A stretch of DNA of 64,000 nucleotides. It comes from Marsupella aquatica (Eukaryota; Plantae; Marchantiophyta). The translations under genes and the position numbers were made by a program. Below are positions 19,513 to 62,264 of the stretch, one piece after another. The stretch lies in contig OZ316898.1 in NCBI GenBank assembly GCA_973895155.1, forward strand, positions 35,540 to 99,539, written 5' to 3'. The notes under the pieces are model-generated. The model ran no database searches. It worked only from the letters and a program-made list of their open reading frames with translations, and was not told where the DNA came from. Each line of letters begins with the position of its first letter. The first letter of the stretch is position 1.

Positions 19513-22500
19513 TGTGGTGCGTCCCATGGCTCCCTAAACCCAAGAAACCCCCCAGCTCAAGCCGATTCCCGCAGGTTTCGCGCTTGGCAAGGCCGTTTCC
19601 GCGGCTTAGCGGCATGGGACGCTGCTAACCTTCTACTACTACTATTAACATTTTACACACATATACTGGACAGATCCTTCATCGGGTCATGAGATACGTA
19701 GCCGGCCTAATCTAGGCCTTCCCTCATCTTCCCCTCCGTCTTGTTAAGTATGTTTGGATTCCGCCGCCGGAATGATCCCCAATAGGCTTGGTTAAGCCGC
19801 TAAGACCTCTCTCAGCTCGACACATCCAACTCTCACTCCCCTGCTTACTTTCCTTCCTTCTAGTTGATGTGGGCACTCTTCACACAAGTTAAACCCTAAA
19901 CGCCCTGCCCACTCACGCCTCCTCCCTCCACGTCCGCCCTTCCTAAAAGGAACGGCGCCCTTGCACCGTCACGACACCGGTGGTGGATCCTTAATGGACG
20001 CCCCCAACGCTTCCTCCTCAGCCACTGCCGTAGGTTCATTCTCTGACAGATTACCTGCCCTTGACTGAGTCAACTCTCCATCGGCCTGACTGGGTCCACC
20101 ATCGGCATCGGCTCGGGAATCGGTTACGGCCTCAGCCTCGGTTACGGCCTCAGCCTCGGCTACGGTCTCCCGGCCTGCTCAAGAGGCGGATCTGGGATAC
20201 TGGCCTCATTATTGAGTAGTTCGGCTTGGGCCGCACCATCCCCACCCTTGATGATAGCGGAATCTATTGCCGTATTCATGTCGGAGGTTGGTGCTGGGTC
20301 TACCTCCTTGGTCACCACGGCCTGTGGAGTCGGATTACTCCTTGACCCTGAAGGTTTCCGCTTCTTCTTCTTTTCTGGTTCGGCAGCTGGTCCCTTCCCC
20401 TTCCCACTTACTTCCGGCACTGGTGCAGGTGGCGCGGCTTTTTCTTCGGCCAGTACCACTCCTGGTAACTTGGTTGCCCCAATTGGAGTTGGGCCTGATG
20501 AAGACAAGCACTTAAATACTACGGCTTGTTTCTTCAGCCGCTCTGTTTGGTTGTCGGCCCGCCGCTGGAGGTTCTCCATCTTCCTCGTGATTTCCTCCAA
20601 CTCCTCCTGGGTCTCATCCAGGTCCTTGCGCGCCTCCTCTAGTTCCTTCTGGGCTTCCTCCCATTCTTTTTTCAAGGTAGTCCTCTCCTCCCGGGTTGCT
20701 CTTAGCTCCTTGTCGAGCTCTGCAATGATGACAGACTCCATCTGGTTCATCTTGGCGTAAGTCTGATCGAGCATCTCGTCCTTCTCCCTTAGGTTGGCCT
20801 TGAAGCTGGCCGTCAGGGACGCAAGCTCCTGCTGCAGCGCCATAATCCCTTGATAGGATTTTCCTAACTCGGCCTCCTTCTGCTCAAGGGCTCCGCGGAT
20901 TTTCTCGAGCTCCCCCTTCAACGCCCATTCCTTTCTTTGGGTCTCCGCCATGGCCCGGCTATTGGCTGTTATGTGGGCCTCCTCTGCATTCCTTAGCTCT
21001 CGCTTCCACTTCTCCCTCTCTTTGATCGTATCGGCCAACTCTCCCTGCGTCTGAGTCAGTTTATCCTTGATATTCTGATTATCAGCCTGCGCGGTGTCCA
21101 ACTGCCCCTGCATGATGTTCAGCTCATGCCGTTTAATCCGCAGTTCATCTTGGGCTTTCTTGGCCGCCCTTAGATCTTCAATCTCGGCTTCCATCCTCCT
21201 AAGCCGCTGAATGACCTCGTCCTTCTTGCTTCTCTCTAAAGCCACCGCTTCTTCTAATTGGTGCTTCTCCAACTGCTCCCTATGGAAAAAGGGTCCTACC
21301 TCCAACTCCTCTCCAAAGATGCCGAGCGCAAGTTCCCCACACATCTCACCATACTCCATGGCTCTATTCTTAGCGTAGGTGGAGTAAGTAGAAGTGATCG
21401 GCATCGCCCATCGCGGCCTTTGCTCCCAAGCCGTCTTGTGGATCTCTTCAATCGTGGCTAGAGGTTTGCTTCCTTTTTTGGCTAGCCGCCTGATGTCCTC
21501 CGGCCAATCTCCTCCTGGTAAATCCTTTTCCCTAGCCAGGGCTGCCTCCTCTTCCTGCCTGATTCGCTCCTGAAATTCCTGTGCCGTCTGTTTTATGCCG
21601 TCAAAGCTCGGGGCAGCAACATCTGGTGGGGGAGACTCAGGGCTACTCTACTGGTTGGGGTCCCCTCGTACTACCCTTGGAAGTGTGGGGACAAACCGGC
21701 CACAGGTCCTTACTCCTGGAACGTGATGGTCCGACCCATAGCCGGAGTTATCATGGCTGCAGTCCTCCATTGCCTCCTCTACTTCTTGGACGTCCGGCTT
21801 CTCCCTCTCCTCTTCGTCGGTAGGAGCTTCAGGCAATTCTGCCTCAGATTCAGGGCTTGAGACTCCCACATACATTCGAACACCTGGCTTGGATTCCGGC
21901 CTGATTCTCTCCTTGTCTCCAGCAAAGGGGTTTTCTCTTGTGAGCCGGTGTAGGCCTACCTCTGGAGTAGTGTCCTGCATTGTTGCCGTTGCCGTTGTCG
22001 TTGCCGATGCCGATCTCTTTTCTTTCTCCAGTAGTTTCAGCAGACTCTGCATGCCTGGTTGCTGCATCGGCAAGTCCTCCGTCCTTGGCCTAAACACCTG
22101 CTCGATCATAGGGCTAACAGGTGGTTGAGGCTTCTCTGCTAACGGCCTCGGCGTTGGAGCTTCCTCGGGTGCCCTTACCTGCAGGGGAAGTACTGGGGCA
22201 AAAGTCTGACCTCTGGCATACCGGCACAACAGCGGCATGTGATAGCCAAGCCGCGACACGCTCCCCATGCCGATTACCTGCTGCTCCTCCTTTAAGATCT
22301 TCTTCAATTGGTTGAGGAGGTACCCGTTGTAGTCCCGACTTGGGTCTGGCCTCTCTGCCAGATAGACCTATGCCTTGCCGATCTCTGCCCTTGGCAAGTT
22401 ACAATGCATGGTCACCCGCAAGAAGTCGATCATCTCTCCTATGTGCGGGTTGGTGCAGGTGTTCCGGAAGAAGCCATTCTTCGTTGATGGCCCGGGGAAC

Positions 22501-23730
22501 GACCGGAACTCCTTGTCAGGCAAGGTCTTCCTGGTATCAACTTTGGTCTTATTGCCTATCGGCAAGCCAAACACTTCGGCAATCACTTTGGGAGTAAGAT
22601 AGAAATCCTTCCCATATATCCTCGTGCAATTGGTCTCGGGTTCCCATGACCCCACGAATTCTAATAGGTCTGACTCCGGTACCTCCGGCTTCAGCCATGG
22701 TAATCTTACAAAGGCCTCTAAGCCGGATCCGGCCATGAAGCCTTGATACTTCTTGGTCTGCATGGCCGTAAAGCATGCATCCTCCTCCCGTGCAAAATGT
22801 AGTTGCACCTCCACCGATAGGGTTGCCGCCCAGCCCTTCCAGGTGTCATCCCTGGTTGGAATGGCCTTGATGGGATCGACCTCCTCTTCTTTGGCTTCTC
22901 CCTGCCTCCTGCTTTGCTGCTCGATTGGCTTCTTTGGTGCCGCCGACCTCATTCTTTTTGCCGGGGTGGCTTCATCGTTGACGGCTCCCTTCCTCTTCAT
23001 CTCTGCTGCCGTGGAGGTTTCTCCTAGCACCGTTGCCTGGGTCCACCTTTCCGTGCTACCCTTTAATTCCCAGTGTATGTCGTTGCAATTCTTGATGGCC
23101 TCTCGGATGCCAACGACGCTGTCTTTGCAAAACAGAAGATCGTCGAGTTAATTGGAAGTAGGAGTCCACAAGAACTCGTCCTTGATGAGTTCGCCTCCTA
23201 AGAAAGCCGTCTTCTGCAGCTCCCACAATCGAGCGAGCTCCTGCCGTTCTCGAGCTGCCCTTTCTGATTCCTCGTCCTCGTAAGTCTTGATGTACTCAGT
23301 TGCCCGTTCGAACAGGCATCCCCAGAAATGTGCCACTTGATTGACGTTGCTCATACCCTCCTTAGGTTGATCGTCGGTATCTACTCTCTCCCCGAGTGCT
23401 TGCCTAAGCAGCTGACAGTAGTTGGCCTCCCGTAGTCGTCTGCCTAGTTCGTGCTCACAACTGAGCCACCATCTCCTGCAAGCGCTCCTTACCCCTCTCC
23501 TCTTCAGGTCCTTCCTCCCGTTGATCCTTCCTAGCCGCCGACGCTTAACGCGCCCTAACCCTAATTGAGTTTTCACCCCCAGCGTCCTTACCTCCGGCCT
23601 CGGCCCAGGTTCCATGGTCGCCCCTAATTGTTTATATTTTCCTTGTTTTGTCCCTATACTAAGGTGTTTCTAGGGTGCCTTCCTGCTTTACCCACTTAAC
23701 TGGCCGAGTGATTCCTGTCTAGACATCACA
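19513..23730 (-). mobile_element. Solo LTR (4,218 bp) of the coding-LTR gypsy family
   Basis: Reverse complement of LTRs 46156-50850 and 57075-61730; TG...CA termini; TSD GTTGC on both sides. Confidence 0.95.
19969..23615 (-). pseudogene. Disrupted copy of the LTR-encoded PMD-like/coiled-coil protein
   Basis: Fragments 23615-23148, 23030-22368, 22307-21648 and 21404-20160 are colinear with ORF 57151-60813. CAA/CAG-to-stop changes and one frameshift near 20170. Confidence 0.9.
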
Positions 23731-35030: not shown

Positions 35031-35310
35031 TTAGTTTCCACCCTAAATTATTCTTGGTGGGGGTCTCTGAGATGGACTCAGGTCATTTGGGCAACAGTAT
35101 TTGTACTCGGCGAGCCTCTCTGAGATGGTAGATTTGTATGGACACACGATCCATACAGAATTACATTGTAAAAACATTGAAAAGTATTGTACGGTCAGTT
35201 TTTGCATGCACTTTTGGGTTCATCCTTGTATTTTGGTGAGGGTCTGACATCGAATGTGGGATAGAACCAATTTGGGTCCTTCATTTGAAACGGAATACCC
35301 TTAATTTCAT

Positions 35311-44610: not shown

Positions 44611-46155
44611 TGTAAGAGGTGGAAAACTGAGACTGTTTGGGCATTGTTTTCGTGGAATGTGAGAGAAATTTATCCGCCAGAATGCTTCGCTAACAATGTT
44701 GCCTCGCTAGCAAAATCTCCTGTTTCCTCGCACCGTACAATTCCTCTACCTCAAGCATTTCAGAGAGGACAACCAGATTACCAAGCCACTAACCAGTACG
44801 GTAAGGAGGTACCATGCTTGGGTCATTCGCAAGGCCCTAATCGGATGGGTGAGGCCTGGAGAAGGGCTCTTTCATGTCAAGGGGACCTAGGCTGGTTCTG
44901 GAGTCCAGGAATAAGGAGGTTAAGGAGTGGAGTCCTTAAAGCCAACATGGAGGGTACCTAAGGACCTGAGTTACATGGAGACTTTGGAGGAACTTGGAGG
45001 GCCATTGGAAGTTGATCCCTCTACTATTTTTAGAGCTATTTGGTAGATAGGGATGACTGTACTTTGGAGGCTGACTTAGTCCCTGTTTTGGAGGGATAGG
45101 ACAGCCAAGTCAGGAGGTGAGGTGGACCTGAATGAAGGGCTAAAATCAAGGAGTTGATTTAGGCTTTCAAAAGGCCACCAACTAGCTCATTAGTTAGGTA
45201 AGACAAACAAGTGAGTTAGTGAGATAGTTAGGAGGATAAGTAAGGATCTTTGACCCCCTTGAAAGGTGGGCTGGTCTTCTTTTAGTGGTAAGTCACTTGC
45301 TGGCCTTTGGGGTGGTTTTGGACTTTGTGATGAATTGAAGCCAAGCAAGGAGTACTTAAGTTGGTGTGAGTTACTTTGTGTGGGTCCAAGGATGGAGAAT
45401 CAAGGAGTAGCACTAAGAGACCTTAGGGGAACTAAGGTAGATGTTCTAGGGGTACTAGAACTCAAGTGTATGCCTTGAGGCTTGAAAGGACCATAGTGTT
45501 AAGTAGTAGGAGTTGAAGAAGCTAAAGTATAGCAAGTAGGTAGTGACAACCTACCCATGTACTTCCTTTGAAATTCTTATGAAATTTCAGCGCGTTTATG
45601 GGAAAGAAATTATTGATGTGCACTCATCTGAAATCTTGAGGCCCTTGTGGTCTAGCATGTTGCTCATATGATTGTTGTGAGCCCAGAAGTCTTCTCTTTG
45701 GGAAAGGGAGACTTAGATTAGTTGTCTTGCCGGGTAGGGGGACATTTCCAGCGGTGGAAACCAAAGAATACCCATTTCTGGTGACGGAAACCAAATACAT
45801 CTGCACAGTCTCAAGGAGAAGCAAAGGCTTAATGGAAATAGAGGTAGTTCCTTCTTATGGAGCGTCCCTCTCGTAGTTCCTGGTGATAAAGAGCTATCAA
45901 GTGCAAGCTTTTAGTACAATAAGGCTTATTAGCTCATAAGCGAGGGTTTGACATATAGTGTCACTCTTGTTTTTGGCGCCACTGCCGGGGAGAACTGATC
46001 TGAAATCTCAGGTCAGGGGAGCCACTAACCAAGAAGGAAGATTTCTTTGATGGTAGGTTGAAGGGGCATGCCCTGCACTAGGAGTCAAGGATTTCAAGAA
46101 AGAGGCCATCTTACTTTGGAGGAAGAGATACTTGAAATTCAAAGAGAGGTGGAAG
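44611..46155 (+). mobile_element. 5' part of an older Athila-like gypsy element: LTR (about 44611-45970), tRNA-Asp-type PBS (45974-45991), gag start at 46068
   Basis: PBS TGGCGCCACTGCCGGGGA. MPCTRSQG...REVE continues in frame after the nested element (from 61736). Confidence 0.7.
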
Positions 46156-49100
46156 TGTGATGCCTAGACAGGAATCACTCGGCCGGTTAAGTGGGTAAAG
46201 CAGGAAGGCACCCTAGGAACACCTTAGTATAGTGACAAAACAAGGAAAATATAAACAATTAGGGGCAACCATGGAACCCGGGCAGAGGCTGGAGGTAAGG
46301 CTGAGGGTGAAAACCCGATTAGGGTTAGGGCGCATTAAGCGTCGGCGGCTAGGAAGGATCAACGGGAAGAAGGACCGGCAGAGGAGAGGGGTAAGGAGCG
46401 CTTGCAGGAGATGGTGGCTCATTTGCGAGCACGAACTAGGCAGACGACTACGGGAGGCCAACTACTGTCAGCTGCTTAGGCAAGCACTCGGGGAGAGAGT
46501 AGATACCGACGATCAACCTAAGGAGGGTATGAGCAACGTCAATCAAGCGGCACATTTCTGGGGATGCCTGTTCGAACGGGCAACTGAGTACATCAAGACT
46601 TACGAGGACGAGGAGTCAGAAAGGGCAGCTCGAGAACGGCAGGAGCTCGCTCGATTGTGGGAGCTGCAGAAGACGGCTTTCTTAGGAGGCGAACTCATCA
46701 AGGACGAGTTCCTGTGGACGCCTACTTCCAATCAACTCGACGATCTTCTGTTTTGCAAAGACAGCGTCGTCGGCATCCGAGAGGCCATCAAGAACTGCAA
46801 CGACATACATTGGGAATTAAAGGGTAGCACGGAAAGGTGGACCCAGGCAACGGTGCTAGGAGAAACCTCCACGGCAGCAGAGATGAAGAGGAAGGGAGCC
46901 GTCAACGATGAAGCCACCCCGGCAAAAAGAACGAGGTCGGTGGCACCAAAGAAGCCAGCCGAGCAGCAGAGCAGGAGGCAGGGAGAAGCTGAAGAGGAGG
47001 AGGTCCATCCCATGAAGGCCATTCCAACCAGGGATGACACCTGGAAGGGCTGGGCGGCAACCCTACCGGTGGAGGTGCAACTACATTTTGCACGGGAGGA
47101 AGATGCATGCTTTACGGCCATGCAGACCAAGAAGTACCAAGGCTTCATGGCCGGATCCGGCTTGGAGGCCTTTGTAAGATTACCATGGCTGAAGCCGGAG
47201 GTACCGGAGTCAGACCTATTAGAATTCGTGGGGTCATGGGAACCCGAGACCAATTGCACGAGGATATATGGGAAGGATTTCTATCTTACTCCCAAGGTGA
47301 TTGCCGAAGTGTTTGGCTTGCCGATGGGCAATAAGACCAAAGTTGATACCAAGAAGACCTTGCCTGACAAGGAGTTCCGGTCGTTCCCCGGGCCATCAAC
47401 GAAGAATGGCTTCTTCCGGAACACCTGCACCAACCCGCACATAGGAGAGATGATCGACTTCTTGCGGGTGACCATGCATTGTAACTTGCCGAGGGCAGAG
47501 ATCGGCAAGGCACAGGTCTATCTGGCAGAAAGGCCAGACCCAAGCCGGGACTACAACGGGTACCTCCTCAACCAATTGAAGAAGATCTTAAAGGAGGAGC
47601 AGCAGGTAATCGGCATGGGGAGCGTGTCGCGGCTTGGCTATCACATGCCGCTGTTGTGCCGGTATGCCAGAGGTCAGACTTTTGCCCCGGTACTTCCCCT
47701 GCAGGTAAGGGCACCCGAGGAAGCTCCAACGCCGAGGCCGTTGGCTGAGAAGCCTCAACCACCTGTTAGTCCTACGATCGAGCAGGTGTTTAGGCCCAGG
47801 AAGGAAGACTTGCCGATGCAGCAACCAGGCATGCAGAGTCTGCTGAAACTACTGGAGAAAGAAAAGAAATCGGCATCGGCAACAACAACGGCAACGGCAA
47901 CAATGCAGGACACTACTACAGAGGTAGGCCTACACCGGCTCACAAGAGAAAACCCCTTTGCTGGAGACAAGGAGAGAATCAGGCCGGAATCCAAGCCAGG
48001 TGTTCGAATGTACGTGGGAACCTCAAGCTCCAAATTTGAGGCAGAATTGCCTGAAGCTCCTACCGAGGAAGAGGAGAGGGAGAAGCCGGACGTCCAAGAG
48101 GTAGAGGAGGCAGTGGAGGACTGCAGCCATGATAATTCCGGCTATGGGTCGGACCATCACGTTCCAGGAGTAAGGACCTGTGGCCGGTTTGTCCCCACAC
48201 TTCCAAGGGTAGTGCGAGGGGACCCCAACCAGCAGAGTAGCCCTGAGTCTCCCCCACCAGATGTTGCTCCCCCGAGCTTCGACGGCATAAAACAGACGGT
48301 GCAGGAATTTCAGGAGCGAATCAAGCAGGAGGAAGAGGCCGCCCTGGCTAAGGAAAAGGATTTACCAGGAGGAGATTGGCCGGAGGACATCAGGCGGCTA
48401 GCCGAAAAAGGAAGCAAACCTCTAGCCACGATTGAAGAGATCCGCAGGACGGCTTGGGAGCAGAGGCCACGATGGGCGATGCCGATCACTTCTACTTACT
48501 CCACCTACGCTAAGAATAGAGCCATGGAGTATGGTGAGATGTGTGGGGAACTTGCGCTCGGCATCTTTGGAGAGGAGTTGGAGGTAGGACCCTTTTTCCA
48601 TAGGGAGCAGTTGGAGAAGCACCAATTAGAAGAAGCGGTGGCTTTAGAGAGAAGCAAGAAGGACGAGGTCATTCGGCGGTTTAGGAGGATGGAAGCCGAG
48701 ATTGAAGATCTAAGGGCGGCCAAGAAAGCCCAAGATGAACTGCGGATTAAATGACATGAGCTGAACATCATGCAGGGGCAGTTGGACACCGCGCAGGCTG
48801 ATAATCAGAATATCAAGGATAAACTGACTCAGACGCAGGAAGAGTTGGCCGACACGATCAAAGAGAGGGAGAAGTGGAAGCAAGAACTGAAGAATACAGA
48901 GGAGGCCCACATAACAGCCAACAGCCGGGCCATGGCGGAGACCCAAAGAAAGGAATGGGCGTTGAAAGGGGAGCTCGAGAAAATCCGCGGAGCCCTTGAG
49001 CAGAAGGAGGTCGAGTTAGGGAAATCCTATCAAGGGATTATGGCGCTGCAGCAGGAGCTTGCGTCCCTGACGGCCAGCTTCAAGGCCGACCTAAGGGAGA

Positions 49101-50850
49101 AGGACGAGATGCTCGAACAGACTTACGCCAAGATGAACCAGATGGAGTCTGTCATCATTGCAGAGCTCGACAAGGAGCTAAGAGCAACCCAGGAGGAGAG
49201 GGCTACCTTGAAGAAGGAATTGGAGGAAGCCCACAGGGAGCAGGAGGAGGCCAAAAACGAGCTGGAGGGGGCACGTAAGGACCTGGATGAAACCCAAGAG
49301 GAGTTGGAGGAAATCACGAGGAAGATGGAGAACCTACAGCGGCGGGCCGACAACCAAACAGAGCGGCTGAAGAAACAAGCCGCAGTATTTAAATGCTTAG
49401 CTGCAGCAGGTCCATCTCCCGTTGGGACAAACCAGTTACCAGGGGTGGTAATTGCCGAAGGACAAGCCGCGCCACCTGCACCAGTGCCGGAAGTAAGTGG
49501 GAAGGGGAAGGGACCAGCTGCCGAGCCACCAACGAAGAAGAAGCGGAAACCTTCAGGGTCAAGGAGTAATACGACTTCACAGGCCGTGGTGATCAAGGAG
49601 GTAGACCCAGCACCGACCCCAGACAGGGTCACGGCTAAGGATCCAACTACCCTAGGGGAAGGGGAGGCCGAAGCCGTGGGAGTGGCTGAGGCCGAAGCCG
49701 AGGGAGTGGCTGAAGCCGAAGCCGTGGGAGTGGCTGAAGCCGAAGCCGTGGGAGTGGCTGAGGCCAAAGCCGTGGGTATTGCCGAGGCCGGTGTCGAGGC
49801 TGAAGCCGAAGGTGGACCCAGTCAGGCCGATGGAGAGTTGACTCGGTCAAGGGCAGGTAATCTGTCAGTAGGCGGGCCAACGGCAGTGGCTGAGGAGGAA
49901 GTGTTGGGGGCGTCCATTGAGGATCCACCACCGGTGTCGTGACGGTGCAAGGGCGCCGTTCCTTTTAGGGAGGGCGGAGGCGTGAGTGGGCAGGGCGGGC
50001 ACGGATCTCCACGTTTAGGATTAGGATCAGAACCAGGAACGGCCCTGACACTTAGCTTAGTGGGATTGCGGTCCCACTGGTAGGAGCAACACTTGTGCTC
50101 CTGCCTTGCTGTACATAGGTAGATTCGGGCAAGTAGATTACTGTTAAGTAGATTAGGCTTACGATGCAAAGAATGGCGGATCCACTACCAGGATAAGTAC
50201 CTGGGCAGCGGGGAGCTCAGGGCCTCTTCTTTAGCAAGTTTTTAGTTTGCACCAGCCGGGCTGGGATCAAGTAGTACGAGAAGCTCTCGGTTAGTCATAC
50301 AGTGACCCTTGTGTATATTCATGTTTCCTCATGCCTAAGAGCTGAATAGAGTTGGCCTCACGGCTTAGTTCGCAGAACTTGTGTATGAGATGTACTGTTT
50401 GTATGGCAAGTGCATGGTATGACTCAGTCAGAAGGAGTCATTTTGCTATTTGTGTGTCGCATTAACTTGTGTGAAGAGTGCCCACATCAACAGAAGGAAG
50501 GAAAGTAAGCAGGGGAGTGAGAGTTGGATGTGTCGAGCTGAGAGAGGTCTTAGCGGCTTAACCAAGCCTATTGGGGATCATTCCGGCGGCGGAATCCAAA
50601 CATACCTAACAAGACGGAGGGGAAGACAGGGGAAGACAGGGGAAGGCCTATATTAGGCCGGCTACGTATCTCATGACTCGATGAAGGATCTGTCCAGTAT
50701 ATGTGTGTAAAATCTTAATAGTAGTAGTAGAAGGTTAGCAGCGTCCCATGCCGCTAAGCCGCGGAAACAGCCTCGCCAAGCTCGAAACCTGCGGGAATCG
50801 GCTTGAGCTGGGGGGTTTCTTGGGTTTAGGGAGCCATGGGACGCACCACA
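46156..50850 (+). repeat. 5' LTR (4,695 bp)
   Basis: Nearly identical to 57075-61730; the length difference is explained by 48-bp, 10-bp and 1-bp indels. Confidence 0.95.
46271..49942 (+). pseudogene. 5'-LTR copy of the LTR-encoded protein, with one CGA-to-TGA nonsense mutation at 48752
   Basis: ORFs 46232-48754 and 48770-49942 are in the same frame and match 57151-60813. Confidence 0.92.
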
Positions 50851-50854
50851 TTTT

Positions 50855-50872
50855 TGGTGCTAGATGGAGGGG
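50855..50872 (+). promoter_or_regulatory. PBS, probably tRNA-Asn type
   Basis: TGGTGCTAGATGGAGGGG, 4 nt after the LTR; close to the complement of the plant tRNA-Asn 3' end (TGGCGCTAGAAGGAGGGG, recalled sequence). Confidence 0.65.
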
Positions 50873-50919
50873 GCATTTCTTAAGCCGTGAGATATGAAGT
50901 TAGAACGGAAGCGTAGGTA

Positions 50920-53913
50920 ATGACTGACCTTACGCCGAGGGAAGAAAGAGTGATTCAACGGGAGAGAGCTCGACTGCAGCAGCTCGCCGGGTGGCATGAT
51001 ACACAGCGACTGAGAGGGGCAGAAAGAGCTGGTAGCTCCGAAACTGGAAGTGGCGTCGAAGAAGACATACCAGAAGAAGAGTCGGTAAGGAGAAGTGAGT
51101 CTCCAACCGACATGGGGGAACCAGAGGCACGGCCAGACGAGAGGCCAGGGACCAGATTGAGCCAGCGGTCGCGCATACATTACAAGGCATTTCATGGGAG
51201 AGGAGATGAGGATCCGGACGAATGGGTGGATGATTTCGAGGGAACCGCTGCAGCAAATGGAGAATCGGCCATCAAGATGCAGATTCTTCCCGGCCTGTTC
51301 AAGGGTGAGGCTAGGCCTTGGTACAGAGCATTAGATGTGGAAGATCAAGCCATCTGGGATATCTTCAAAACACTCTTTGTTAAGGAGTTTCGACCCATTG
51401 GAACTTCAGAACTAGCAGTGCTGAAGTTGGGACAACTTCGGTTCAAGGAGAACAAATCCTTCAGGAAGTTCTTGGAACGCTTTCAGAAACTGGTAAGACG
51501 TACAAAGACCAATGCATCTGAAGGTATGCAACTTCAATGGTTAGTGAATGCTTTGCCACAGAAGATGAGTTTGCAATTAGGAAGGAGAACCCGGAGACTT
51601 TAGCCGAAGCAATTAAGGATATTCAATTATACATTAATGCAGATATCACAAGCCAGAAGAAACAGCTTAAGTCTGAGAGTTCCTCATCAGAGGAGGGATC
51701 ACCCCATAAGAAAAAAGATAAGAAGAAGAAACATTCCAAGAAGTCTAGAAGTGATAAGTCAAGCTCGGATAGTGGGAGTAGCAAGAGTGAGTCATCTTCT
51801 AGTTCTGAAGAAGAAAAAAACTAGGAAAAGGAAGGGCAGAAGGAGAGGGAAGACGAAAGTCAAGATGGAGGCTAAGCCACCAGATAACATCGTAGCCCTT
51901 ACCGAGCAACTTAAGGCTATCATTGCAGAGGTAAAACCAAAGAAGAAGGTAGTACAGGAGGATAGCTCTGTATGGTGTGCCTTATGTTATAAAACCGGAC
52001 ACCATAAAGATGCGTGTCCTAAGCTTAATACTAATCATGTTCGGCATGTGGCCGAGATCAGACCATGTCAGGGAGAAGTAGAGTACTTTTTGGGAGATGC
52101 CGCTGATAGTGTTTTCGGCATCAGTGAGACTGGAGCACGAGACCTATCCAACAGACCTGCATCTCTGTGGTCAGGGTTAAGGAACAATCCAGGAGAGATG
52201 TATCCTCGGATTATTCAGAACACGTCAGTACCTCCTAGGCCGAATGTGCAAAGATTTGCGGCGTGCTATAATTGTGGTCAACCTGGCCATTTTGCTAGAG
52301 AATGCCCGAATGCACGCAAACAGGGTGATGGACAACCAGCTCAGCTATGTATGGGATGCCGACAGGAAGGTCATATGCTAGGGCAATGTCCTACTTGGTT
52401 GGCAGGCCTGGCCGCAAATCATAAGCTTTTGCCGATCAAGATCTTACCGCCAGGTACTACCCCCGGAGGAGTTCAAATCAACCACATCGAACTAGGATGG
52501 CAAGAGGATGCCGAGGCAGAGTTCGTACCATCTGATGATGAGGCCGAAGCCCTATCAACCTTCTCAGAGGAGGATTTAGATCATGATTGCTACCGGGTCT
52601 CTACTCGATCTACCAGAAGGAAGGAAAGGTGGGATGGGCTGGCCAAAAATAAAGGGAAGGTTACGGAGGAAAGGATCGACTCTTCGTCAACATCAACAGA
52701 AGGAGAAGGGAGGGCTCCGGCAATACAGGTAAGCCATGAGCCCACCAGTGAAACCAATCCTTCACAAGATAGCGACTTCAATCGAGATCATCCTAAGTTG
52801 TTCTACCCCTCTGTTACGGCTAGTGTTAAGGAACAACTAAGAGAATTAGAAACCCTGGAGAATACCGAAGCCATTGCCAAGGATGTAAAACGAGCAAAAG
52901 CATTGTTTGCTTCGGAAGACCCAACAGCTGTGGAGACTAGCGTGGCAAAACTGGCCGAATCCAAGACGGAAACACCACCAGAAGAGAAGTCGATTGTTCC
53001 CTATGACCTGGCTAAAGATGTACTAGAATCTAGAGTCTCGGCAACAGTAGGTCAACTATTGAAAAATAGCCCGTACTTCCGGAAGCAATTAAGGAAGGCT
53101 ATTCTCGGCAAGCCGAGATTACCCAAGGTAGCAACCAGATCCGACGTACTAATGATAGAAGAAGATCAAGGAGCCCCAGCATTACCATTAATGATTCAAG
53201 GAGAATTATTACTACGGGTACCCATCGATGGAGGATCAGGGGTATGTATTATGATTGATTCAACAGCAAAAGGGTGGGGTCTAACACCGGAGATGACTGG
53301 AAGAGTGTTGAACATGGCCAATGGATATCAGGTCATTCCGACGGGAGTGTTAACCGGCATCAAGACAGAGATAGGAGGTATCTTCTTTAGCATTAACTAT
53401 GTAGTAATGAAGCCGGTAAATCCTACGTCATTCCGGCTATTGATTGGTAGGCCATGGCTGTACCTAGCCGAGGTAATAGAAGATTGGGGTAAAAAGCAGT
53501 TCACTTTCGGGACCCCCTCTATCACGGTATCCTGGGACACTAAGGATGACCGTAGGAAAAGCATAAGGGAAGTAGATGGGTACGACAGTGGACTGGAGTC
53601 AGCCGATGAAGTACGTTGGTTAGAATGCCTCACTAACCTAACCGAAGAAGGTGTCTTTGGACTAGAGGTACCCCCCAGCGGATTATGGCAAGAACCAATG
53701 GAAGGTGACTTGGAAGAAGAAGACAAAGAGGTCGAGGACTGCTTTACAATAGAATCCACCTTTTTAGCTGCAATTCCGGAGGAAGTAAAGGATGTAGACC
53801 AATTGGATGAAACGGCTAAGTGGGGAGCAGTAGCAGGGACAGTGGATTTTCTGCAGGCGTTGTGGCAGAGCCGACGGGGTCCACAACGCCATCGATCATC
53901 GGCAAGGAATTAA
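50920..53913 (+). CDS. Gag (three CCHC knuckles) plus aspartic protease, with two compensating frameshifts around 51570-51820
   Basis: FHGRGDEDPDEW capsid-like motif; CALCYKTGHHKDAC, CYNCGQPGHFAREC, CMGCRQEGHMLGQC; IDGGSG...LLIGRPWL. Confidence 0.85.
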
Positions 53914-56900
53914 ATACCAAGGGATCGGCATACAAGCCGATTACGAGGGCAGAACAAATTGAGGCCCTATTAGAAGCCGAGAGAGCACAGCGGCCTAACT
54001 CTCAGGAGCAAGAGGTGGATGAGATGGACAGACACGATCTAGAGCCAAGGCAGGAAGGGGAGCCGACCACTAATTCAAAACCGAATAGACCGGTAAGGGG
54101 ACAATCTATGGACACCAAGGAAGGGACCGACTCGGCTAGTCCAGCCGAGATCCCAGTTTATGGAGGTATGAGATTAGAGAGACTGGAAGCCGAACTGGAC
54201 CCGAATTTGAAGAAGCAGATTAATATGATCCAAGCACGGCAATATCGGAAGCTCGACTTAGGAGAGGGAAGAGAACTGAACTTAGGGAGAAACCTAGCAC
54301 CTGAGCTCGAGAAAGAGATCAGTGACTTATTGATTGAATTTCAGGATGTGTTTGCATGGAGTCACCAAGATCTAAAGGGAGTAGATCCAACACTAGGGGA
54401 ACATCGAATTGATCTCATGTTAGGAGCCAAATCATTTTGACAACCAATTCGAAGGATGAACCCGAAGTATTCCCTGCTGGTCAAAACAGAAATCGACAAA
54501 CTAGTGGAAGCTGGATTCATCACTCCAGTCCTGCATTCAGACTGGGTGTCTCCAATTGTGATAGTTCCCAAGAAAGCTGGACCCGATGGTAAACCCAAGA
54601 TCCGGGTTTGTCAGGATTACAGGAAGCTGAATGAAGCAACATTAAAAGACCATTTTCCTTTACCGTTTACTGATATGGTACTAGACATGGTAGCCAGTCA
54701 TGAACTATATTCATTCATGGATGGATACTCTGGTTATAACCAAATCAGGATTCGGCAGGAAGACCAAATCAAGACGGCCTTCATCACGGAATGGGGGATC
54801 TATGTCTTCAATCGTATGCCGTTTGGACTCTGCAACGCACCAGCTATGTTCCAACGATTAATGGTGAACATTTTTCATGATTACTTGAGAAAGTTCATGG
54901 AAATCTTCATTGATGACTTTGCAGTATTCGGGAAGGCATCGAAACATGCTAAATACCTCAGGAAAACCTTCATGAGATGTAGAGAGGTGGGTCTCAAGTT
55001 ACACCCAGATAAATGTTTTTTTGCAGTAACCGAGGGGGTGCTACTAGGTCACAAGGTATCAAGGAAGGGCATTGAGATTGACAAAGGTAAGCTAGCAGTA
55101 TGGCTAGATATCATGCAACCTAAGAACATAAAGGATGTAAGATCCTTCTTGGGATGCATTGGTTACTATCGCCGGTTCATCAAGGATTTTGCCAAGCTGG
55201 CTTTACCATTAACCAATATGCTCAAGGCAGGAGCAGACTTCGAACCCACACCCGAACGAGTCACAGCGGTGGTAGAATTGAAGCAGATGTTAGTAGAGGC
55301 CCCAGTCATGATAGCACCGGACTGGAACAAAGATTTTCATGTTTTTGTAGATGTCTCGGGCTTCTGTATTGGCTCAGTACTAAGTCAGTTGGATGAGAAA
55401 GGAAGGGACCATCCCATATACTTCGCAAGCCGTCAGCTTGCCGATGCCGAACGTAACTACTCTACCACGGAAAGAGAAGCATTAGGAGTCATTTATTCTT
55501 GTAAAAAGTTTAGGCATTATTTACTAGGGTACAAGGTAATCTTTCATACTGATCATGAAAGTTTGAAGTACCTAGTCAATAAGCCGGACCTTACAGGCAG
55601 AGTAGCAAGATGGATTTTGCTATTACAGGAGTTTGACTATGAGCTGAGGATCAAGCCGGGAAAGTTACATGCCAATGCCGACTTCTTTTCAAGGATCACA
55701 GGTAAACCTGCCACGGATTGCATCGATGATCGATTCCCCGACGAGGAGCTATTCGTTGTGGAAATAGCTGGTACATGGTACCCTGAGATTTTACAATTTC
55801 TCAGCACTTCCAGATTACAGCCAGGATTAAGCCGAGAGCAAGCCGCAGTCTTTGTGCGGAAGGTCAGACAGTATCAGTGCATTAAAGGCATACTGCACAA
55901 GCATGGAATCAACGGCACGATTCAAAGATGTTTGGAAAAGAGAGAGGTAAAACGAGTCCTACGGGCCATGCATGGAGAGGAGGCCGGAGGACATTTTGCC
56001 CCAGTAACCACGTCTAAGAAGATATTAAATGCCGGTTACTGGTGGCCCACCTTGCACAAAGATGTCTATCAGTTTATCAAACAATGCGATCCTTGTCAAC
56101 GAGCGGGAGGACCAAGGGCGTCCACCAGGCATCCACTGCACCCTATTCTACCTCTGGCACCATTCGAGAAGTGGGGTATTGATTACATTGGACCTCTGAA
56201 ACCACTGACCCACCCTCGACGGAACAAGTACATAATCCTGGCTACGGATTATGCAACTAAATGGGTAGAGGCCAGACCAACAACGAAGGATGATGCAATT
56301 ACTACGGCTAGATTCATGTATGAGCAGATCTTCACCAGGTATGGAGCACCCCTAGAATTAGTTAGTGATAGAGGAACCCATTTTTTGAATGATATAATTA
56401 GTCGTTTAAATGAGCAGTATTTAGTTAAACATAGGCCTACTACTCCCTACCATCCAAAGGCAAACGGGTTGACAGAACGAGCAAACGGGATCATAGGAAA
56501 GATATTGAACAAGACAGTAGCTCAGAACAAACTTGATTGGGATGATAAATTGTTTGCTGCTGTTTTTGCTTACAATCTTGCCTATAAATCCACTACCGGT
56601 CATACACCCTTCTTCTTAACCTTTGGACAAGAAGCCCTGGTACCCATGCAACTTGAGATACCGACATTTCAAGTTACAATTGAGGAAAGAGCCTCAACGG
56701 AGGAGAGCCTAAAGGAGCGAGAATATAGGTTAGAAGCTTTAGAGGAAGCGAGAATGATTTCAGCCGAGAGAGTAGAATATAGACAGAATATCATGAAGCA
56801 GCAGTATGATAAAAGGTTAAAAGTAGTTAGTATTCATACCGGTGATCTTGTGCTACTTTATGACAGTAGGTATAGTAGGTTTCCAGGAAAGCTTTACACT

Positions 56901-57086
56901 CGCTGGTTAGGACCCTTTAGAGTAACCATGATGTTCCCCAATGGCTCCGTGCAATTGGCCAACATTACGGGAGAGGTATATCCAGTTCGCATCCATTATG
57001 ACCGCCTCAAGAAATACTATATGGACGAAGATGAAGTTGTTCGCGAGGACGCTTCACAATTAAGTGGGGAGCTATGTGATGCCTAG
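53820..57086 (+). CDS. Pol: RT, RNase H, integrase (-1 frame relative to Gag-PR), with one internal TGA at 54438-54440
   Basis: RVCQDYRKLN, MPFGLCNAPA, FIDDF, FVDVS, TDH, HHCC zinc finger, GIDYIGP/SDRG/NGLTER, WLGPF. Confidence 0.92.
53844..53903 (+). promoter_or_regulatory. Candidate -1 programmed ribosomal frameshift signal
   Basis: In-frame G-GAT-TTT, 5-nt spacer, perfect 10-bp stem GGCGTTGTGG/CCACAACGCC; loop GCCGA can pair with downstream TCGGC. Confidence 0.72.
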
Positions 57087-60000
57087 ACAGGAATCACTCG
57101 GCCGGTTAAGTGGGTAAAGCAGGAAGGCACCCTAGGAACACCTTAGTATAGTGACAAAACAAGGAAAATATAAACAATTAGGGGCAACCATGGAACCCGG
57201 GCAGAGGCCGGAGGTAAGGCTGAGGGTGAAAACCCGATTAGGGTTAGGGCGCGTTAAGCGTCGGCGGCTAGGAAGGATCAACGGGAAGAAGGACCGGCAG
57301 AGGAGAGGGGTAAGGAGCGCTTGCAGGAGATGGTGGCTCATTTGCGAGCATGAACTAGGCAGACGACTACGGGAGGCCAACTACTGTCAGCTGCTTAGGC
57401 AAGCACTCGGGGAGAGAGTAGATACCGACGATCAACCTAAGGAGGGTATGAGCAACGTCAATCAAGCGGCACATTTCTGGGGATGCCTGTTCGAACGGGC
57501 AACTGAGTACATCAAGACTTACGAGGACGAGGAGTCAGAAAGGGTAGCTCGAGAACGGCAGGAGCTCGCTCGATTGTGGGAGCTGCAGAAGACGGCTTTC
57601 TTAGGAGGCGAACTCATCAAGGACGAGTTCCTGTGGACGCCTACTTCCAATCAACTCGACGATCTTCTGTTTTGCAAAGACAGCGTCGTCGGCATCCGAG
57701 AGGCCATCAAGAACTGCAACGACATACATTGGGAATTAAAGGGTAGCACGGAAAGGTGGACCCAGGCAACGGTGCTAGGAGAAACCTCCACGGCAGCAGA
57801 GATGAAGAGGAAGGGAGCCGTCAACGATGAAGCCACCCCGACAAAAAGAACGAGGTCGGCGGCACCAAAGAAGCCAGCCGAGCAGCAGAGCAGGAGGCAG
57901 GGAGAAGCCGAAGAGGAGGAGGTCGATCCCATGAAGGCCATTCCAACCAGGGATGACACCTGGAAGGGCTGGGCGGCAACCCTACCGGTGGAGGTGCAAC
58001 TACATTTTGCACGGGAGGAAGATGCATGCTTTACGGCCATGCAGACCAAGAAGTACCAAGGCTTCATGGCCGGATCCGGCTTGGAGGCCTTTGTAAGATT
58101 ACCATGGCTGAAGCCGGAGGTACCGGAGTCAGACCTATTAGAATTCGTGGGGTCATGGGAACCCGAGACCAATTGCATGAGGATATATGGGAAGGATTTC
58201 TATCTTACTCCCAAGGTGATTGCCGAAGTGTTTGGCTTGCCGATGGGCAATAAGACCAAAGTTGATACCAGGAAGACCTTGCCTGACAAGGAGTTCCGGT
58301 CATTCCCCGGGCCATCAACGAAGAATGGCTTCTTCCGGAACACTTGCACCAACCCGCACATAGGAGAGATGATCGACTTCTTGCAGGTGACCATGCATTG
58401 TAACTTGCCGAGGGCAGAGATCGGCAAGGCACAGGTCTATCTGGCAGAAAGGCCAGACCCAAGCCGGGACTACAACGGGTACCTCCTCAACCAATTGAAG
58501 AAGATCTTAAAGGAGGAGCAGCAGGTAATCGGCATGGGGAGCGTGTCGCGGCTTGGCTATCACATGCCGCTGTTGTGCCGGTATGCCAGAGGTCAGACTT
58601 TTGCCCCGGTACTTCCCCTGCAGGTAAGGGCACCCGAGGAAGCTCCAACGCCGAGGCCGTTGGCTGAGAAGCCTCAACCACCTGTTAGTCCTACGATCGA
58701 GCAGGTGTTTAGGCCCAGGAAGGAAGACTTGCCGATGCAGCAACCAGGCATGCAGAGTCTGCTGAAACTACTGGAGAAAGAAAAGAAATCGGCATCGGCA
58801 ACAACAACGGCAACGGCAATAATGCAGGACACTACTACAGAGGTAGGCCTACACCGGCTCACAAGAGAAAACCCCTTTGCTGGAGACAAGGAGAGAATCA
58901 GGCCGGAATCCAAGCCAGGTGTTCGAATGTACGTGGGAACCTCAAGCTCCAAATCTGAGGCAGAATTGCCTGAAGCTCCTACCGAGGAAGAGGAGAGGGA
59001 GAAGCCGGACGTCCAAGAGGTAGAGGAGGCAGTGGAGGACTGCAGCCATGATAATTCCGGCTATGGGTCGGACCATCACGTTCCAGGAGTAAGGACCTGT
59101 GGCCGGTTTGTCCCCACACTTCCAAGGGTAGTGCGAGGGGACCCCAACCAGCAGAGTAGCCCTGAGTCTCCCCCACCAGATGTTGCTCCCCCGAGCTTCG
59201 ACGGCATAAAACAGATGGTGCAGGAATTTCAGGAGCGAATCAAGCAGGAGGAAGAGGCCGCCCTGGCTAAGGAAAAGGATTTACCAGGAGGAGATTGGCC
59301 GGAGGACATCAGGCGGCTAGCCGAAAAAGGAAGCAAACCTCTAGCCACGATTGAAGAGATCCGCAGGACGGCTTGGGAGCAGAGGCCACGATGGGCGATG
59401 CCGATCACTTCTACTTACTCCACCTACGCTAAGAATAGAGCCATGGAGTATGGTGAGATGTGTGGGGAACTTGCGCTCGGCATCTTTGGAGAGGAGTTGG
59501 AGGTAGGACCCTTTTTCCATAGGGAGCAGTTGGAGAAGCACCAATTAGAAGAAGCGGTGGCTTTAGAGAGAAGCAAGAAGGATGAGGTCATTCGGCGGCT
59601 TAGGAGGATGGAAGCCGAGATTGAAGATCTAAGGGCGGCCAAGAAAGCCCAAGATGAACTGCGGATTAAACGACATGAGCTGAACATCATGCAGGGGCAG
59701 TTGGACACCGCGCAGGCTGATAATCAGAATATCAAGGATAAACTGACTCAGACGCAGGAAGAGTTGGCCGACACGATCAAAGAGAGGGAGAAGTGGAAGC
59801 AAGAACTGAAGAATACAGAGGAGGCCCACATAACAGCCAACAGCCGGGCCATGGCGGAGACCCAAAGAAAGGAATGGGCGTTGAAAGGGGAGCTCGAGAA
59901 AATCCGCGGAGCCCTTGAGCAGAAGGAGGTCGAGTTAGGGAAATCCTATCAAGGGATTATGGCGCTGCAGCAGGAGCTTGCGTCCCTGACGGCCAGCTTC

Positions 60001-61730
60001 AAGGCCGACCTAAGGGAGAAGGACGAGATGCTCGAACAGACTTACGCCAAGATGAACCAGATGGAGTCTGTCATCATTGCAGAGCTCGACAAGGAGCTAA
60101 GAGCAACCCAGGAGGAGAGGGCTACCTTGAAGAAGGAATTGGAGGAAGCCCACAAGGAGCAGGAGGAGGCCAAAAACGAGCTGGAGGGGGCACGTAAGGA
60201 CCTGGATGAAACCCAAGAGGAGTTGGAGGAAATCACGAGGAAGATGGAGAACCTACAGCGGCGGGCCGACAACCAAACAGAGCGGCTGAAGAAACAAGCC
60301 GCAGTATTTAAATGCTTAGCTACAGCAGGTCCATCTCCCGTTGGGACAAACCAGTTACCAGGGGTGGTAATTGCCGAAGGACAAGCCGCGCCACCTGCAC
60401 CAGTGCCGGAAGTAAGTGGGAAGGGGAAGGGACCAGCTGCCGAGCCACCAACGAAGAAGAAGCGGAAACCTTCAGGGTCAAGGAGTAATACGACTTCACA
60501 GGCCGTGGTGATCAAGGAGGTAGACCCAGCACCGACCCCAGACAGGGTCACGGCTAAGGATCCAACTACCCTAGGGGAAGGGGAGGCCGAAGCCGAGGGA
60601 GTGGCTGAAGCCGAAGCCGTGGGAGTGGCTGAGGCCGAAGCCGTGGGTATTGCCGAGGCCGGTGTCGAGGCTGAAGCCGAAGGTGGACCCAGTCAGGCCG
60701 ATGGAGAGTTGACTCGGTCAAGGGCAGGTAATCTGTCAGTAGGCGGGCCAACGGCAGTGGCTGAGGAGGAAGTGTTGGGGGCGTCCATTGAGGATCCACC
60801 ACCGGTGTCGTGACGGTGCAAGGGCGCCGTTCCTTTTAGGGAGGGCGGAGGCGTGAGTGGGCAGGGCGGGCACGGATCTCCACGTTTAGGATTAGGATCA
60901 GAACCAGGAACGGCCCTGACACTTAGCTTAGTGGGATTGCGGTCCCACTGGTAGGAGCAACACTTGTGCTCCTGCCTTGCTGTACATAGGTAGATTCGGC
61001 AAGTAGATTACTGTTAAGTAGATTAGGCTTACGATGCAAAGAATGGCGGATCCACTACCAGGATAAGTACCTGGGCAGCGGGGAGCTCAGGGCCTCTTCT
61101 TTAGCAAGTTTTTAGTTTGCACCAGCCGGGCTGGGATCAAGTAGTACAAGAAGCTCTCGGTTAGTCATACAATGACCCTTGTGTATATTCATGTTTCCTC
61201 ATGCCTAAGAGCTGAATAGAGTTGGCCTCACGGCTTAGTTCGCAGAACTTGTGTATGAGATGTACTGTTTGTATGGCAAGTGCATGGTATGACTCAGTCA
61301 GAAGGAGTCATTTTGCTATTTGTGTGTCGCATTAACTTGTGTGAAGAGTGCCCACATCAACAGAAGGAAGGAAAGTAAGCAGGGGAGTGAGAGTTGGATG
61401 TGTCGAGCTGAGAGAGGTCTTAGCGGCTTAACCAAGCCTATTGGGGATCATTCCGGCGGCGGAATCCAAACATACCTAACAAGACGGAGGGGAAGACAGG
61501 GGAAGACAGGGGAAGACAGGGGAAGGCCTATATTAGGCCGGCTACGTATCTCATGACCCGATGAAGGATCTGTCCAGTATATGTGTGTAAAATGTTAATA
61601 GTAGTAGTAGAAGGTTAGCAGCGTCCCATGCCGCTAAGCCGCGGAAACGGCCTCGCCAAGCACGAAACCTGCGGGAATCGGCTTGAGCTGGGGGGTTTCT
61701 TGGGTTTAGGGAGCCATGGGACGCACCACA
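57075..61730 (+). repeat. 3' LTR (4,656 bp), preceded by PPT TAAGTGGGGAG
   Basis: Match to the 5' LTR; TSD follows at 61731-61735. Confidence 0.95.
57190..60813 (+). CDS. Intact LTR-encoded protein (1,207 aa from the first ATG; 1,220 aa from GTG at 57151): basic N-terminus, PMD-like domain, long coiled coil, low-complexity tail
   Basis: Uninterrupted 3.6-kb ORF entirely within the LTR. LLEFVGSWEPETN...GKDFYLTPKVIAEVFGLP resembles the PMD core. About 250 aa of E/K/L-rich heptads. Confidence 0.85.
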   Translation: MEPGQRPEVRLRVKTRLGLGRVKRRRLGRINGKKDRQRRGVRSACRRWWLICEHELGRRLREANYCQLLRQALGERVDTDDQPKEGMSNVNQAAHFWGCLFERATEYIKTYEDEESERVARERQELARLWELQKTAFLGGELIKDEFLWTPTSNQLDDLLFCKDSVVGIREAIKNCNDIHWELKGSTERWTQATVLGETSTAAEMKRKGAVNDEATPTKRTRSAAPKKPAEQQSRRQGEAEEEEVDPMKAIPTRDDTWKGWAATLPVEVQLHFAREEDACFTAMQTKKYQGFMAGSGLEAFVRLPWLKPEVPESDLLEFVGSWEPETNCMRIYGKDFYLTPKVIAEVFGLPMGNKTKVDTRKTLPDKEFRSFPGPSTKNGFFRNTCTNPHIGEMIDFLQVTMHCNLPRAEIGKAQVYLAERPDPSRDYNGYLLNQLKKILKEEQQVIGMGSVSRLGYHMPLLCRYARGQTFAPVLPLQVRAPEEAPTPRPLAEKPQPPVSPTIEQVFRPRKEDLPMQQPGMQSLLKLLEKEKKSASATTTATAIMQDTTTEVGLHRLTRENPFAGDKERIRPESKPGVRMYVGTSSSKSEAELPEAPTEEEEREKPDVQEVEEAVEDCSHDNSGYGSDHHVPGVRTCGRFVPTLPRVVRGDPNQQSSPESPPPDVAPPSFDGIKQMVQEFQERIKQEEEAALAKEKDLPGGDWPEDIRRLAEKGSKPLATIEEIRRTAWEQRPRWAMPITSTYSTYAKNRAMEYGEMCGELALGIFGEELEVGPFFHREQLEKHQLEEAVALERSKKDEVIRRLRRMEAEIEDLRAAKKAQDELRIKRHELNIMQGQLDTAQADNQNIKDKLTQTQEELADTIKEREKWKQELKNTEEAHITANSRAMAETQRKEWALKGELEKIRGALEQKEVELGKSYQGIMALQQELASLTASFKADLREKDEMLEQTYAKMNQMESVIIAELDKELRATQEERATLKKELEEAHKEQEEAKNELEGARKDLDETQEELEEITRKMENLQRRADNQTERLKKQAAVFKCLATAGPSPVGTNQLPGVVIAEGQAAPPAPVPEVSGKGKGPAAEPPTKKKRKPSGSRSNTTSQAVVIKEVDPAPTPDRVTAKDPTTLGEGEAEAEGVAEAEAVGVAEAEAVGIAEAGVEAEAEGGPSQADGELTRSRAGNLSVGGPTAVAEEEVLGASIEDPPPVS

Positions 61731-61735
61731 GGAAG

Positions 61736-62264
61736 CAGAATTTAGAGATCGACGGTCTGAAGGGAGCCCATCTGAAGAGACCAGTGAAGGGACACTTGCA
61801 CAAGAAGCGTGGAGTGAATCATTCGAAGAAGAAGAAGCTCCGACGGTGCTAGTCATGGCTGCAACACAAAGGGCAAGGTTTCAGTATAAACCTTTCCATG
61901 GGAAAGCTAAGGAGGACCCTGACGAGTGGGTAGAAGACTTTGTTGGAACTGCTGAAGCCAATGGTAAGGATGCTATCAAGTTGACTACATTGGCTGGTGT
62001 CTTGAGAGGAGAAGCTAGGCCATGGTACAAAGGGCTGCCTGCTGTGACAAAGGGTGATTGGAATTTGTTTAGAGTTGCTTTTCTACAAGAGTTTCGGAAG
62101 GTGGGAGAGGAGAGTGAAGCTCTTATCAAGATTGGCCGGCTGAGAATGTCAAGTGAAGAATCAGTTTGAAGTTTTCTACAGAAGTTCCAAAGAGTTGCCA
62201 GAAAGATAGATCCAGCTCTAGATGACTCTATGTTGATGAGATGGTTTGTGTCCTCTCTACCTAA
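61736..62264 (+). pseudogene. Continuation of the host element's gag
   Basis: YKPFHGKAKEDPDEWVEDF...WFVSSLP, homologous to the gag at 50920; in frame with 46068-46155. Confidence 0.8.

Follow-up and report, generated by a model that had tools for sequence, protein, structure and literature searches.

What is a complete gene doing inside the long terminal repeat (LTR) of a retrotransposon? The question is raised by a 64,000-nucleotide stretch of contig OZ316898.1 from Marsupella aquatica (the window, whose coordinates are used throughout), in which a Ty3/gypsy element spanning 46156-61730 carries a large open reading frame (ORF) in both of its LTRs. A preliminary description of this DNA had reported an "LTR protein" with a motif resembling the plant mobile domain (PMD) and an SMC-like coiled coil, and had suggested a nuclear regulator encoded by a transposable element (TE). 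The expression "LTR protein" turns out to be literally correct, and the confinement of the whole ORF to the LTR, which that description under-weighted, is the best-shown oddity of the locus. On our best reading, the product is an Ogre/Retand-type accessory protein placed unusually inside the LTR and, as far as sequence comparison indicates, it belongs to a family that is not visible to Pfam and that has liverwort members.

Self-comparison of the window identified a direct repeat of 4.7 kb (46156-50850 and 57075-61730) that is 98% identical with gaps and flanks gag and pol. Both copies start with TG and end with CA, a target-site duplication borders the full element, and sequences resembling a primer-binding site (PBS) and a polypurine tract (PPT) lie behind the 5′ copy and in front of the 3′ copy, as in LTR retrotransposons generally (Table 1). 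A third copy with the same ends and a duplication of its own, GCAAC, is thus a solo LTR. From the shared ends, the target duplications and the positions of PBS and PPT we conclude that the 4.7-kb repeat is a true LTR; a contig of a different organism (run X6) departs from the window sequence exactly at 57075, where the 3′ LTR starts. The two LTRs of the full element differ at 29 of 4646 aligned positions (0.6%), and the insertion is therefore young. Transitions between them fall at CG or CHG sites in 23 of 25 cases, compared with 41% expected, a bias which suggests that the host likely methylates the LTR. At least half of the LTR's words were found in six of the 16 public runs listed, under four organism labels (one of which may be the window's own source), and summed contig depth, a figure that is not a copy number, was greater for the LTR than for gag-pol.

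The surroundings of these LTR copies are themselves repetitive. The solo LTR is embedded in a 122-bp tandem satellite (19238-19512 and 23610-24778) and is missing about 440 nt behind the ORF stop codon, while the full element sits in the gag of another gypsy-type element (45970-46155 and 61731-62260) that shows a related gag motif and, near 45974, a PBS-like site of its own. Two more LTR fragments lie on the minus strand, one corresponding to the first 430 nt (35311-35739) and the other to the last 190 nt (62262-62458); the latter begins just behind a TATA-like box described below, and is roughly the part expected for R-U5.

The internal region places the element in Ty3/gypsy, with gag followed by reverse transcriptase (RT), RNase H and integrase in that order, and the best match of pol in the PDB was Ty3 Gag-Pol (E = 5.8e-92). 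The protease is our reading of a DGGSG motif in a region that gave no Pfam match for protease. The element is not a chromovirus by its domain content, as no chromodomain was matched by Pfam after the integrase and pol terminates soon thereafter. A second, archaeal-type RNase H, a mark of the Tat/Ogre/Retand clade, was not detected in the Pfam scan, which matched one RNase H region in pol; the liverwort Tat clades Z1 and Z2 are described without this additional RNase H (PMC10508981). In the present copy gag-protease is disrupted by stops and frame changes, and pol and the gene in the 3′ LTR remain open.

We next consider whether the LTR-borne ORF is a gene. It begins 62 nt past the LTR start, ends 917 nt short of the LTR end, and occurs in both LTRs of the full element as well as in the solo LTR. 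Relative to the solo copy, whose three stop codons were set aside, the ratio of non-synonymous to synonymous change (pN/pS) was 0.09 for amino acids (aa) 105-215, 0.13 for aa 276-490, 0.29 for aa 491-690, 0.31 for aa 691-800 and 0.22 for aa 801-1065. Between the two LTRs of the one insertion, by comparison, 15 non-synonymous and 4 synonymous differences gave a neutral ratio of 1.09, and the 5′ copy carries a single nonsense change. This is the pattern expected of a gene that is selected while its family replicates and that decays after insertion. Because 1225 codons are open, purifying selection is seen relative to the solo LTR and 17 plausible relatives exist (see below), the ORF is more than a chance reading frame, and we regard it as almost certainly a real functional gene.

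The protein probably starts at Met105 (57448), which would give 1121 aa; Met19 (57190) is the other in-frame candidate. Two distant relatives start a few residues ahead of an F-W pair that aligns just past Met105, within an N-terminal similarity that is weak (the pairwise scores were reached by 2/1000 and 87/1000 shuffles, and that of the two-sequence profile by 10/1000). Frequent variants at 32 places fell on first, second and third codon positions 5, 7 and 7 times upstream of Met105 and 4, 1 and 8 times downstream, such that a third-position bias is present downstream only; yet an upstream 3-nt insertion preserves the frame. With clustered neighboring changes and second alleles excluded, variants were synonymous at 6 of 15 places upstream and 13 of 24 downstream.

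From this start the predicted protein runs through a probably helical N-terminal domain, a conserved globular domain and a long coiled coil to a disordered tail. The interval 58060..60310 given in the preliminary description thus captures the middle of a real ORF, with the protein extending further on both sides. The motifs quoted there are present in one frame, with GLEAFVRLPW at aa 315 (58078), LLEFVGSWEPETNC at aa 334 (58135) and KVIAEVFGLP at aa 360 (58213), and the coiled coil that it put at about 250 aa is recognizable as a proline-free stretch of 273 aa. Both of its basic clusters, KRRRLGR and KKKRKP, exist outside that interval; the former (aa 41, 57256) lies upstream of the probable start and may therefore not be translated, and a further cluster at aa 224-240 had been overlooked. 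The acidic tail also contains a 24-bp coding repeat that is present in 3.3 copies in the 3′ LTR (60583-60661) and 5.3 copies in the 5′ LTR (49664-49790) of this same young insertion.

To place the protein in a family, we relied on a search of the representatives of a 1.84-billion-protein collection, which returned 18 matches. Seventeen of these are plausible relatives, and the eighteenth, P0010, was rejected as a false positive, being a bacterial adhesin. Of 10 relatives looked up, 2 are labelled as coming from the liverwort Calypogeia fissa, and a profile search of longer proteins found two Calypogeia proteins only among 7987 candidates, which supplied a third Calypogeia member of the family. 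Word-indexed homolog searches with the single protein gave no matches, and the viral and metagenome contigs searched held no related locus. Family members conserve G-L-x-x-F-V-x-L-P-W, followed by E-F-x-x-x-W, a beta hairpin with Gly, and L-T...F-x-L. The distant relatives P0027 and P0028 share the order of this domain, a disordered basic linker and a coiled-coil-like C-terminus.

The conserved domain is probably a remote member of the PMD/DUF1985 (VANC) superfamily, though not a member of PF10536. We scored a 17-position PMD motif taken from a published PMD set (PMC5418596, supplement file 4; here and below, published systems are cited from the accessible parts of the respective sources). Its best site in the protein was the motif noted in the preliminary description, with 8 of 17 positions matched, a score equaled by 25/2000 whole-protein shuffles and 29/5000 domain shuffles. 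Eight of the 14 family members, a non-independent set, have their best site at this same column. A similar motif pattern is found in PF20167. Among ESM Atlas neighbors of the query, unnamed plant clusters were accompanied by DUF1985 at 0.91 and PMD at 0.88. The "PMD-like" label is therefore retained only as a remote resemblance, with modest support from the motif register and the Atlas neighbors.

What might such a protein do? Because the closest characterized domains act on chromatin, we propose a nuclear factor that acts in trans on its own family. VANC21, which recognizes a short motif, demethylates the element that encodes it (PMC5735166). In a predicted structure, the PMD domain of MAIL1 resembles the DUF1985 domain of VANC, and MAIL1, MAIN and MAIL2 (PMD-C) sit on DNA motifs and oppose Polycomb silencing and H3K27me3 (10.1101/2024.09.27.615353), a mark that covers many transposons in Marchantia (10.1101/827881). 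We hold the chances to be evenly balanced that the protein is a nuclear regulator of its element, and equally so for the fuller proposal of an accessory factor, encoded in the LTR, that acts in trans on the chromatin of its own element to keep the element transcribed. That the activity is specifically anti-silencing is a tentative suggestion by analogy, even though it is the single most likely activity. The earlier idea of a nuclear, TE-encoded regulator thus fits the evidence in that the product is TE-encoded and not env-like, with the nuclear role qualified as probable.

The layout of the LTR offers a plausible mechanism. A TATA-like box at 61529, directly behind a 10-bp tandem repeat (Table 1), is a candidate promoter of the genomic RNA. 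If that RNA starts from this box, about 170 nt ahead of the LTR end, the ORF would lie in U3, and reverse transcription would carry it over from the RNA 3′ end to each of the new LTRs. Expression of the ORF itself would probably depend on a separate promoter close to the LTR start, or else on a spliced RNA. The basic clusters may drive nuclear import of the product, whose PMD-like domain would recognize DNA or chromatin and whose coiled coil may oligomerize the protein or recruit host factors.

Several observations weigh against a PMD-type chromatin factor. No Pfam match to PMD, DUF1985, Transposase_28, Transposase_32 or ATHILA was obtained for pieces of the query, for 18/18 search matches or, at E up to 10, for 16/16 alignment members. 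The letters W-x-P-E-T emphasized in the preliminary description vary within the family (P in 4/13 and T in 5/14 rows). In what is a crude motif test, 6 of 14 relatives place another site above the core site, and a six-frame site in the window's protease region outscores it (29.6 vs 28.6 bits). The Atlas row for DUF1985 shares 151/256 features, fewer than the 170 typical of true members. By eye, the domain covers about 200 aa before a proline-rich linker, leaving the C-terminal third of the ~350-aa PMD missing, and it has no net positive charge. Relative to the solo LTR, aa 216-275 (pN/pS 0.84) and the repeat-rich tail at aa 1066-1225 (1.06) show no selection. Finally, the non-coding LTR shows no enrichment of a dispersed target motif of the VANC type and has just the one local 10-bp repeat.

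The main rival to anti-silencing is an accessory role in the RNA or integration phase, in which the protein would take unspliced genomic RNA out of the nucleus, act as a scaffold for particles, or anchor the integration complex in heterochromatin. We judge this somewhat doubtful, but it has points in its favor. A long coiled coil with basic disordered linkers suits an oligomeric scaffold, CERV of the C. elegans element Cer1 provides a precedent for RNA export, and such roles are listed for the extra ORFs of plant elements by Vicient and Casacuberta (PMC7264820). Furthermore, despite an integrase without a chromodomain, the full element lies within a foreign gag and the solo LTR in a satellite. 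However, two insertion sites in a repeat-rich window barely inform on targeting, no RNA-binding or chromatin-reader Pfam domain was matched, and the only families resembling the conserved domain have, in the sources cited here, roles in chromatin and transcription.

It is also possible, although we consider it unlikely, that the domain is unrelated to PMD, with the motif matching by chance in an accessory factor of undescribed fold. Under this explanation the uniform lack of Pfam matches among the 16 alignment members would be expected, the motif has a p-value of only ~0.01 and was found after the fact, and an Atlas score of 0.9 is reached by shuffled proteins in 4 to 10 of 100 cases. Nevertheless, two members that are ~25% identical each retrieve DUF1985 and PMD clusters, with the distant relative P0011 doing so at 0.85 (below 0.9, and hence a lead only). 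The spacing of Gly, Trp, Thr and Gly-Leu and the next helical block with its aromatic residue fit published PMD rows by eye, and gypsy elements commonly carry PMD as a passenger (PMC6317226). AlphaFold2 gave a pLDDT of 30 without an alignment and of 42 (pTM 0.24) with 21 sequences; the predicted order of helix, helix, beta hairpin and helix would suit the motif, in a model of low confidence. At pLDDT 42 this model is too poor to inform on the fold, and the same holds for the comparisons made with it, in which Foldseek against PDB and BFVD returned 0 matches at E up to 0.001 and VIA-align reached a best Z of 3.2. A profile search of PDB sequences gave a single chance match (E = 0.93).

An env-like protein or a captured host gene derived from SMC is very improbable. 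The ORF does follow pol in sense orientation, the position of env, and long coiled coils in Retand ORFs score "Smc" in domain scans (PMC11963269), but this explanation is largely refuted by missing defining motifs. As the preliminary description had also noted, there is no transmembrane segment (the maximum Kyte-Doolittle mean over 19 residues is 0.98 across the ORF). Its "SMC-like" label does not hold, since Walker A, Walker B and the SMC signature are absent, no SMC or env Pfam model matched, and the coiled-coil region matched generic coiled-coil models only, all below threshold, leaving merely a long coiled coil. Least credible of all is that the 4.7-kb repeat is a tandem duplication of a third ORF plus a short LTR, or an assembly artefact: so long an LTR with a full gene is unusual, but the two target-site duplications refute this, and the identical ends of three copies, the adjoining PPT and PBS, the foreign gag split by the element and the methylation-type bias of the 29 substitutions speak against it as well.

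We then compared the locus with known systems. A conserved TE domain together with a coiled coil in an extra ORF of a gypsy element is already known. The extra ORFs of Ogre/Tat with PMD-A (PF10536) likewise are gypsy-borne and contain a PMD-type core motif (PMC5418596, PMC6317226), and PMD is present in 57% of Ogre elements (PMC6317226). Those ORFs lie up- or downstream of gag-pol and encode an angiosperm PMD, whereas the present one lies inside the LTR, has named relatives in a liverwort and a shorter domain without a PF10536 match, in an element with no second RNase H detected. Retand TRP28 (PF04195), Grande gene23 and ORF2 of PvRetro13 also are accessory ORFs after pol with a small conserved domain and often a coiled coil that scores "Smc" (PMC11963269, PMC7264820), a label that is routine for the coiled coils of Retand, PvRetro13 and Burro ORFs (PMC11963269, PMC7264820, PMC6431247); the gene23 product is nuclear and its gene has its own promoter (PMC7264820). 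In contrast to the ORF described here, which is in sense orientation, within the LTR and without a PF04195 match, they are antisense and lie between pol and an LTR of 0.4-1.2 kb.

VANC (DUF1985, PF09331) of VANDAL elements is the nearest named ESM Atlas family and is similarly TE-encoded, with a conserved domain and variable repeat-rich regions (PMC5735166). It resides on a DNA transposon of the Mutator-like (MULE) type, and the motifs it binds are amplified as tandem repeats, whereas here there is one short local repeat and no Pfam match. The core motif is in register with the N-terminal part of MAIN, MAIL1 and MAIL2, but these are encoded by the host and have a complete PMD of ~350 aa, whereas the present gene is a multi-copy gene of an element, and its product adds an N-terminal domain and a coiled coil of 273 aa. 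Athila elements with Transposase_32 (PF20167) or ATHILA ORF-1 (PF03078) are also non-chromovirus gypsy elements with a sense ORF after pol (PMC11728184), but theirs lies outside the LTR, and ours matches neither Pfam family. Transposase_28 is reported in 23% of Retand elements, and 16% of Athila elements contain Athila ORF-1 (PMC6317226, PMC9289625, PMC11728184).

Genes within LTRs also occur in animal retroviruses. The superantigen ORF of mouse mammary tumor virus (MMTV) lies in the LTR, and the nef ORF of human immunodeficiency virus (HIV) and the bel ORFs of foamy viruses extend into U3. These resemble our case in layout only, as a gene within the LTR that is copied to both ends, and their ORFs are far shorter and without sequence relationship. 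For Ogre, with LTRs of 1.9-6.5 kb, and Retrosat2, with LTRs of > 3.2 kb, the accessible parts of the sources mention no genes inside these long LTRs. Our literature search for ORFs inside LTRs (open-access PMC and bioRxiv) returned MMTV as its sole exact-phrase match, a limited search that is no proof of absence from print. The novelty lies in the combination of three features, namely a complete gene of more than 1,100 codons within an LTR, a family that Pfam misses and that includes liverwort proteins, and a likely relation to VANC/PMD.

A gene in this position has consequences for how such elements are surveyed and understood. It doubles with each insertion and outlasts recombination to a solo LTR, so that "dead" solo LTRs could still make the regulator, and surveys restricted to ORFs beside gag-pol, or to Pfam, could miss it. 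Extra ORFs are common in plant gypsy elements; anti-silencing has been demonstrated for VANC of DNA transposons and is merely suspected for TE-encoded PMDs. A more far-reaching version, which we regard as improbable, is that the LTR is a self-contained anti-silencing cassette comprising a VANC/PMD-type protein and its target beside its own promoter. Each insertion would then carry two doses, and each solo LTR would be an autonomous gene keeping the family active in trans. As a bryophyte branch of PMD/DUF1985 that escapes Pfam, the family would date PMD-like factors of gypsy elements to early land plants and would bear on whether host MAIL genes arose from retrotransposons. Given a young family, close relatives in several public organisms and an intact copy, the proposal is directly testable in Marchantia.

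Table 1 Coordinates of the retrotransposon, its LTRs and the LTR-borne gene in the window.
Feature	Position	Strand	Remarks
Solo LTR, same family	19513..23730	-	~93% identity; flanked by the duplication GCAAC; three stops in its ORF
Target-site duplication GGAAG	46151..46155 (left); 61731-61735 (right)	+ (left)	5 bp; borders full element
5′ LTR	46156..50850	+	4695 nt, TG...CA; ORF copy 46217-49942, one nonsense codon at codon 846
PBS-like site	50855..50872	+	Starts TGG, 4 nt past 5′ LTR; putative tRNA pairing
gag (Retrotrans_gag, zinc knuckle) and probable protease region	50917..54440	+	Split into several ORFs here
pol: RT, RNase H, integrase	54441..57086	+	Stop codon 12 nt within 3′ LTR
PPT-like stretch	57062..57071	+	Abuts 3′ LTR start
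3′ LTR	57075..61730	+	4656 nt, TG...CA; intact ORF
LTR-borne ORF	57136..60813	+	1225 codons stop to stop
TATAAA	57169..57174	+	Sole one in LTR, 95 nt from LTR start; candidate promoter of LTR-borne gene
N-terminal domain, probably helical	57448..57780	+	aa 105-215
Bipartite nuclear localization signal (NLS)-like cluster KRK-x10-KRTR	57805..57855	+	aa 224-240; pattern match only
Conserved globular domain, remote PMD/DUF1985-like	57961..58605	+	aa ~276-490; core motif aa 315-369 (58078-58242)
Predicted coiled coil	59512..60330	+	aa 793-1065; 273 aa, proline-free, E/K/R/Q-rich
Monopartite NLS-like KKKRKP	60454..60471	+	aa 1107; disordered tail
10-bp tandem repeat AGGGGAAGAC	61488..61535	+	3.8 copies here, 2.8 in 5′ LTR, fewer in solo LTR

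Elsewhere in the window we observed a Ty1/copia polyprotein in two frames (9910-14554, plus strand) and, on the minus strand, a long interspersed nuclear element (LINE)-type RT with zf-RVT (37166-39415). Tandem arrays occupy 17505-18914, with a 111-bp unit and a 459-codon open frame on the minus strand, and 33991-35135, with a 169-bp unit. A 519-codon ORF on the minus strand (28901-30460) matched Pkinase_fungal, a fungal-type protein kinase family, above the cut-off.

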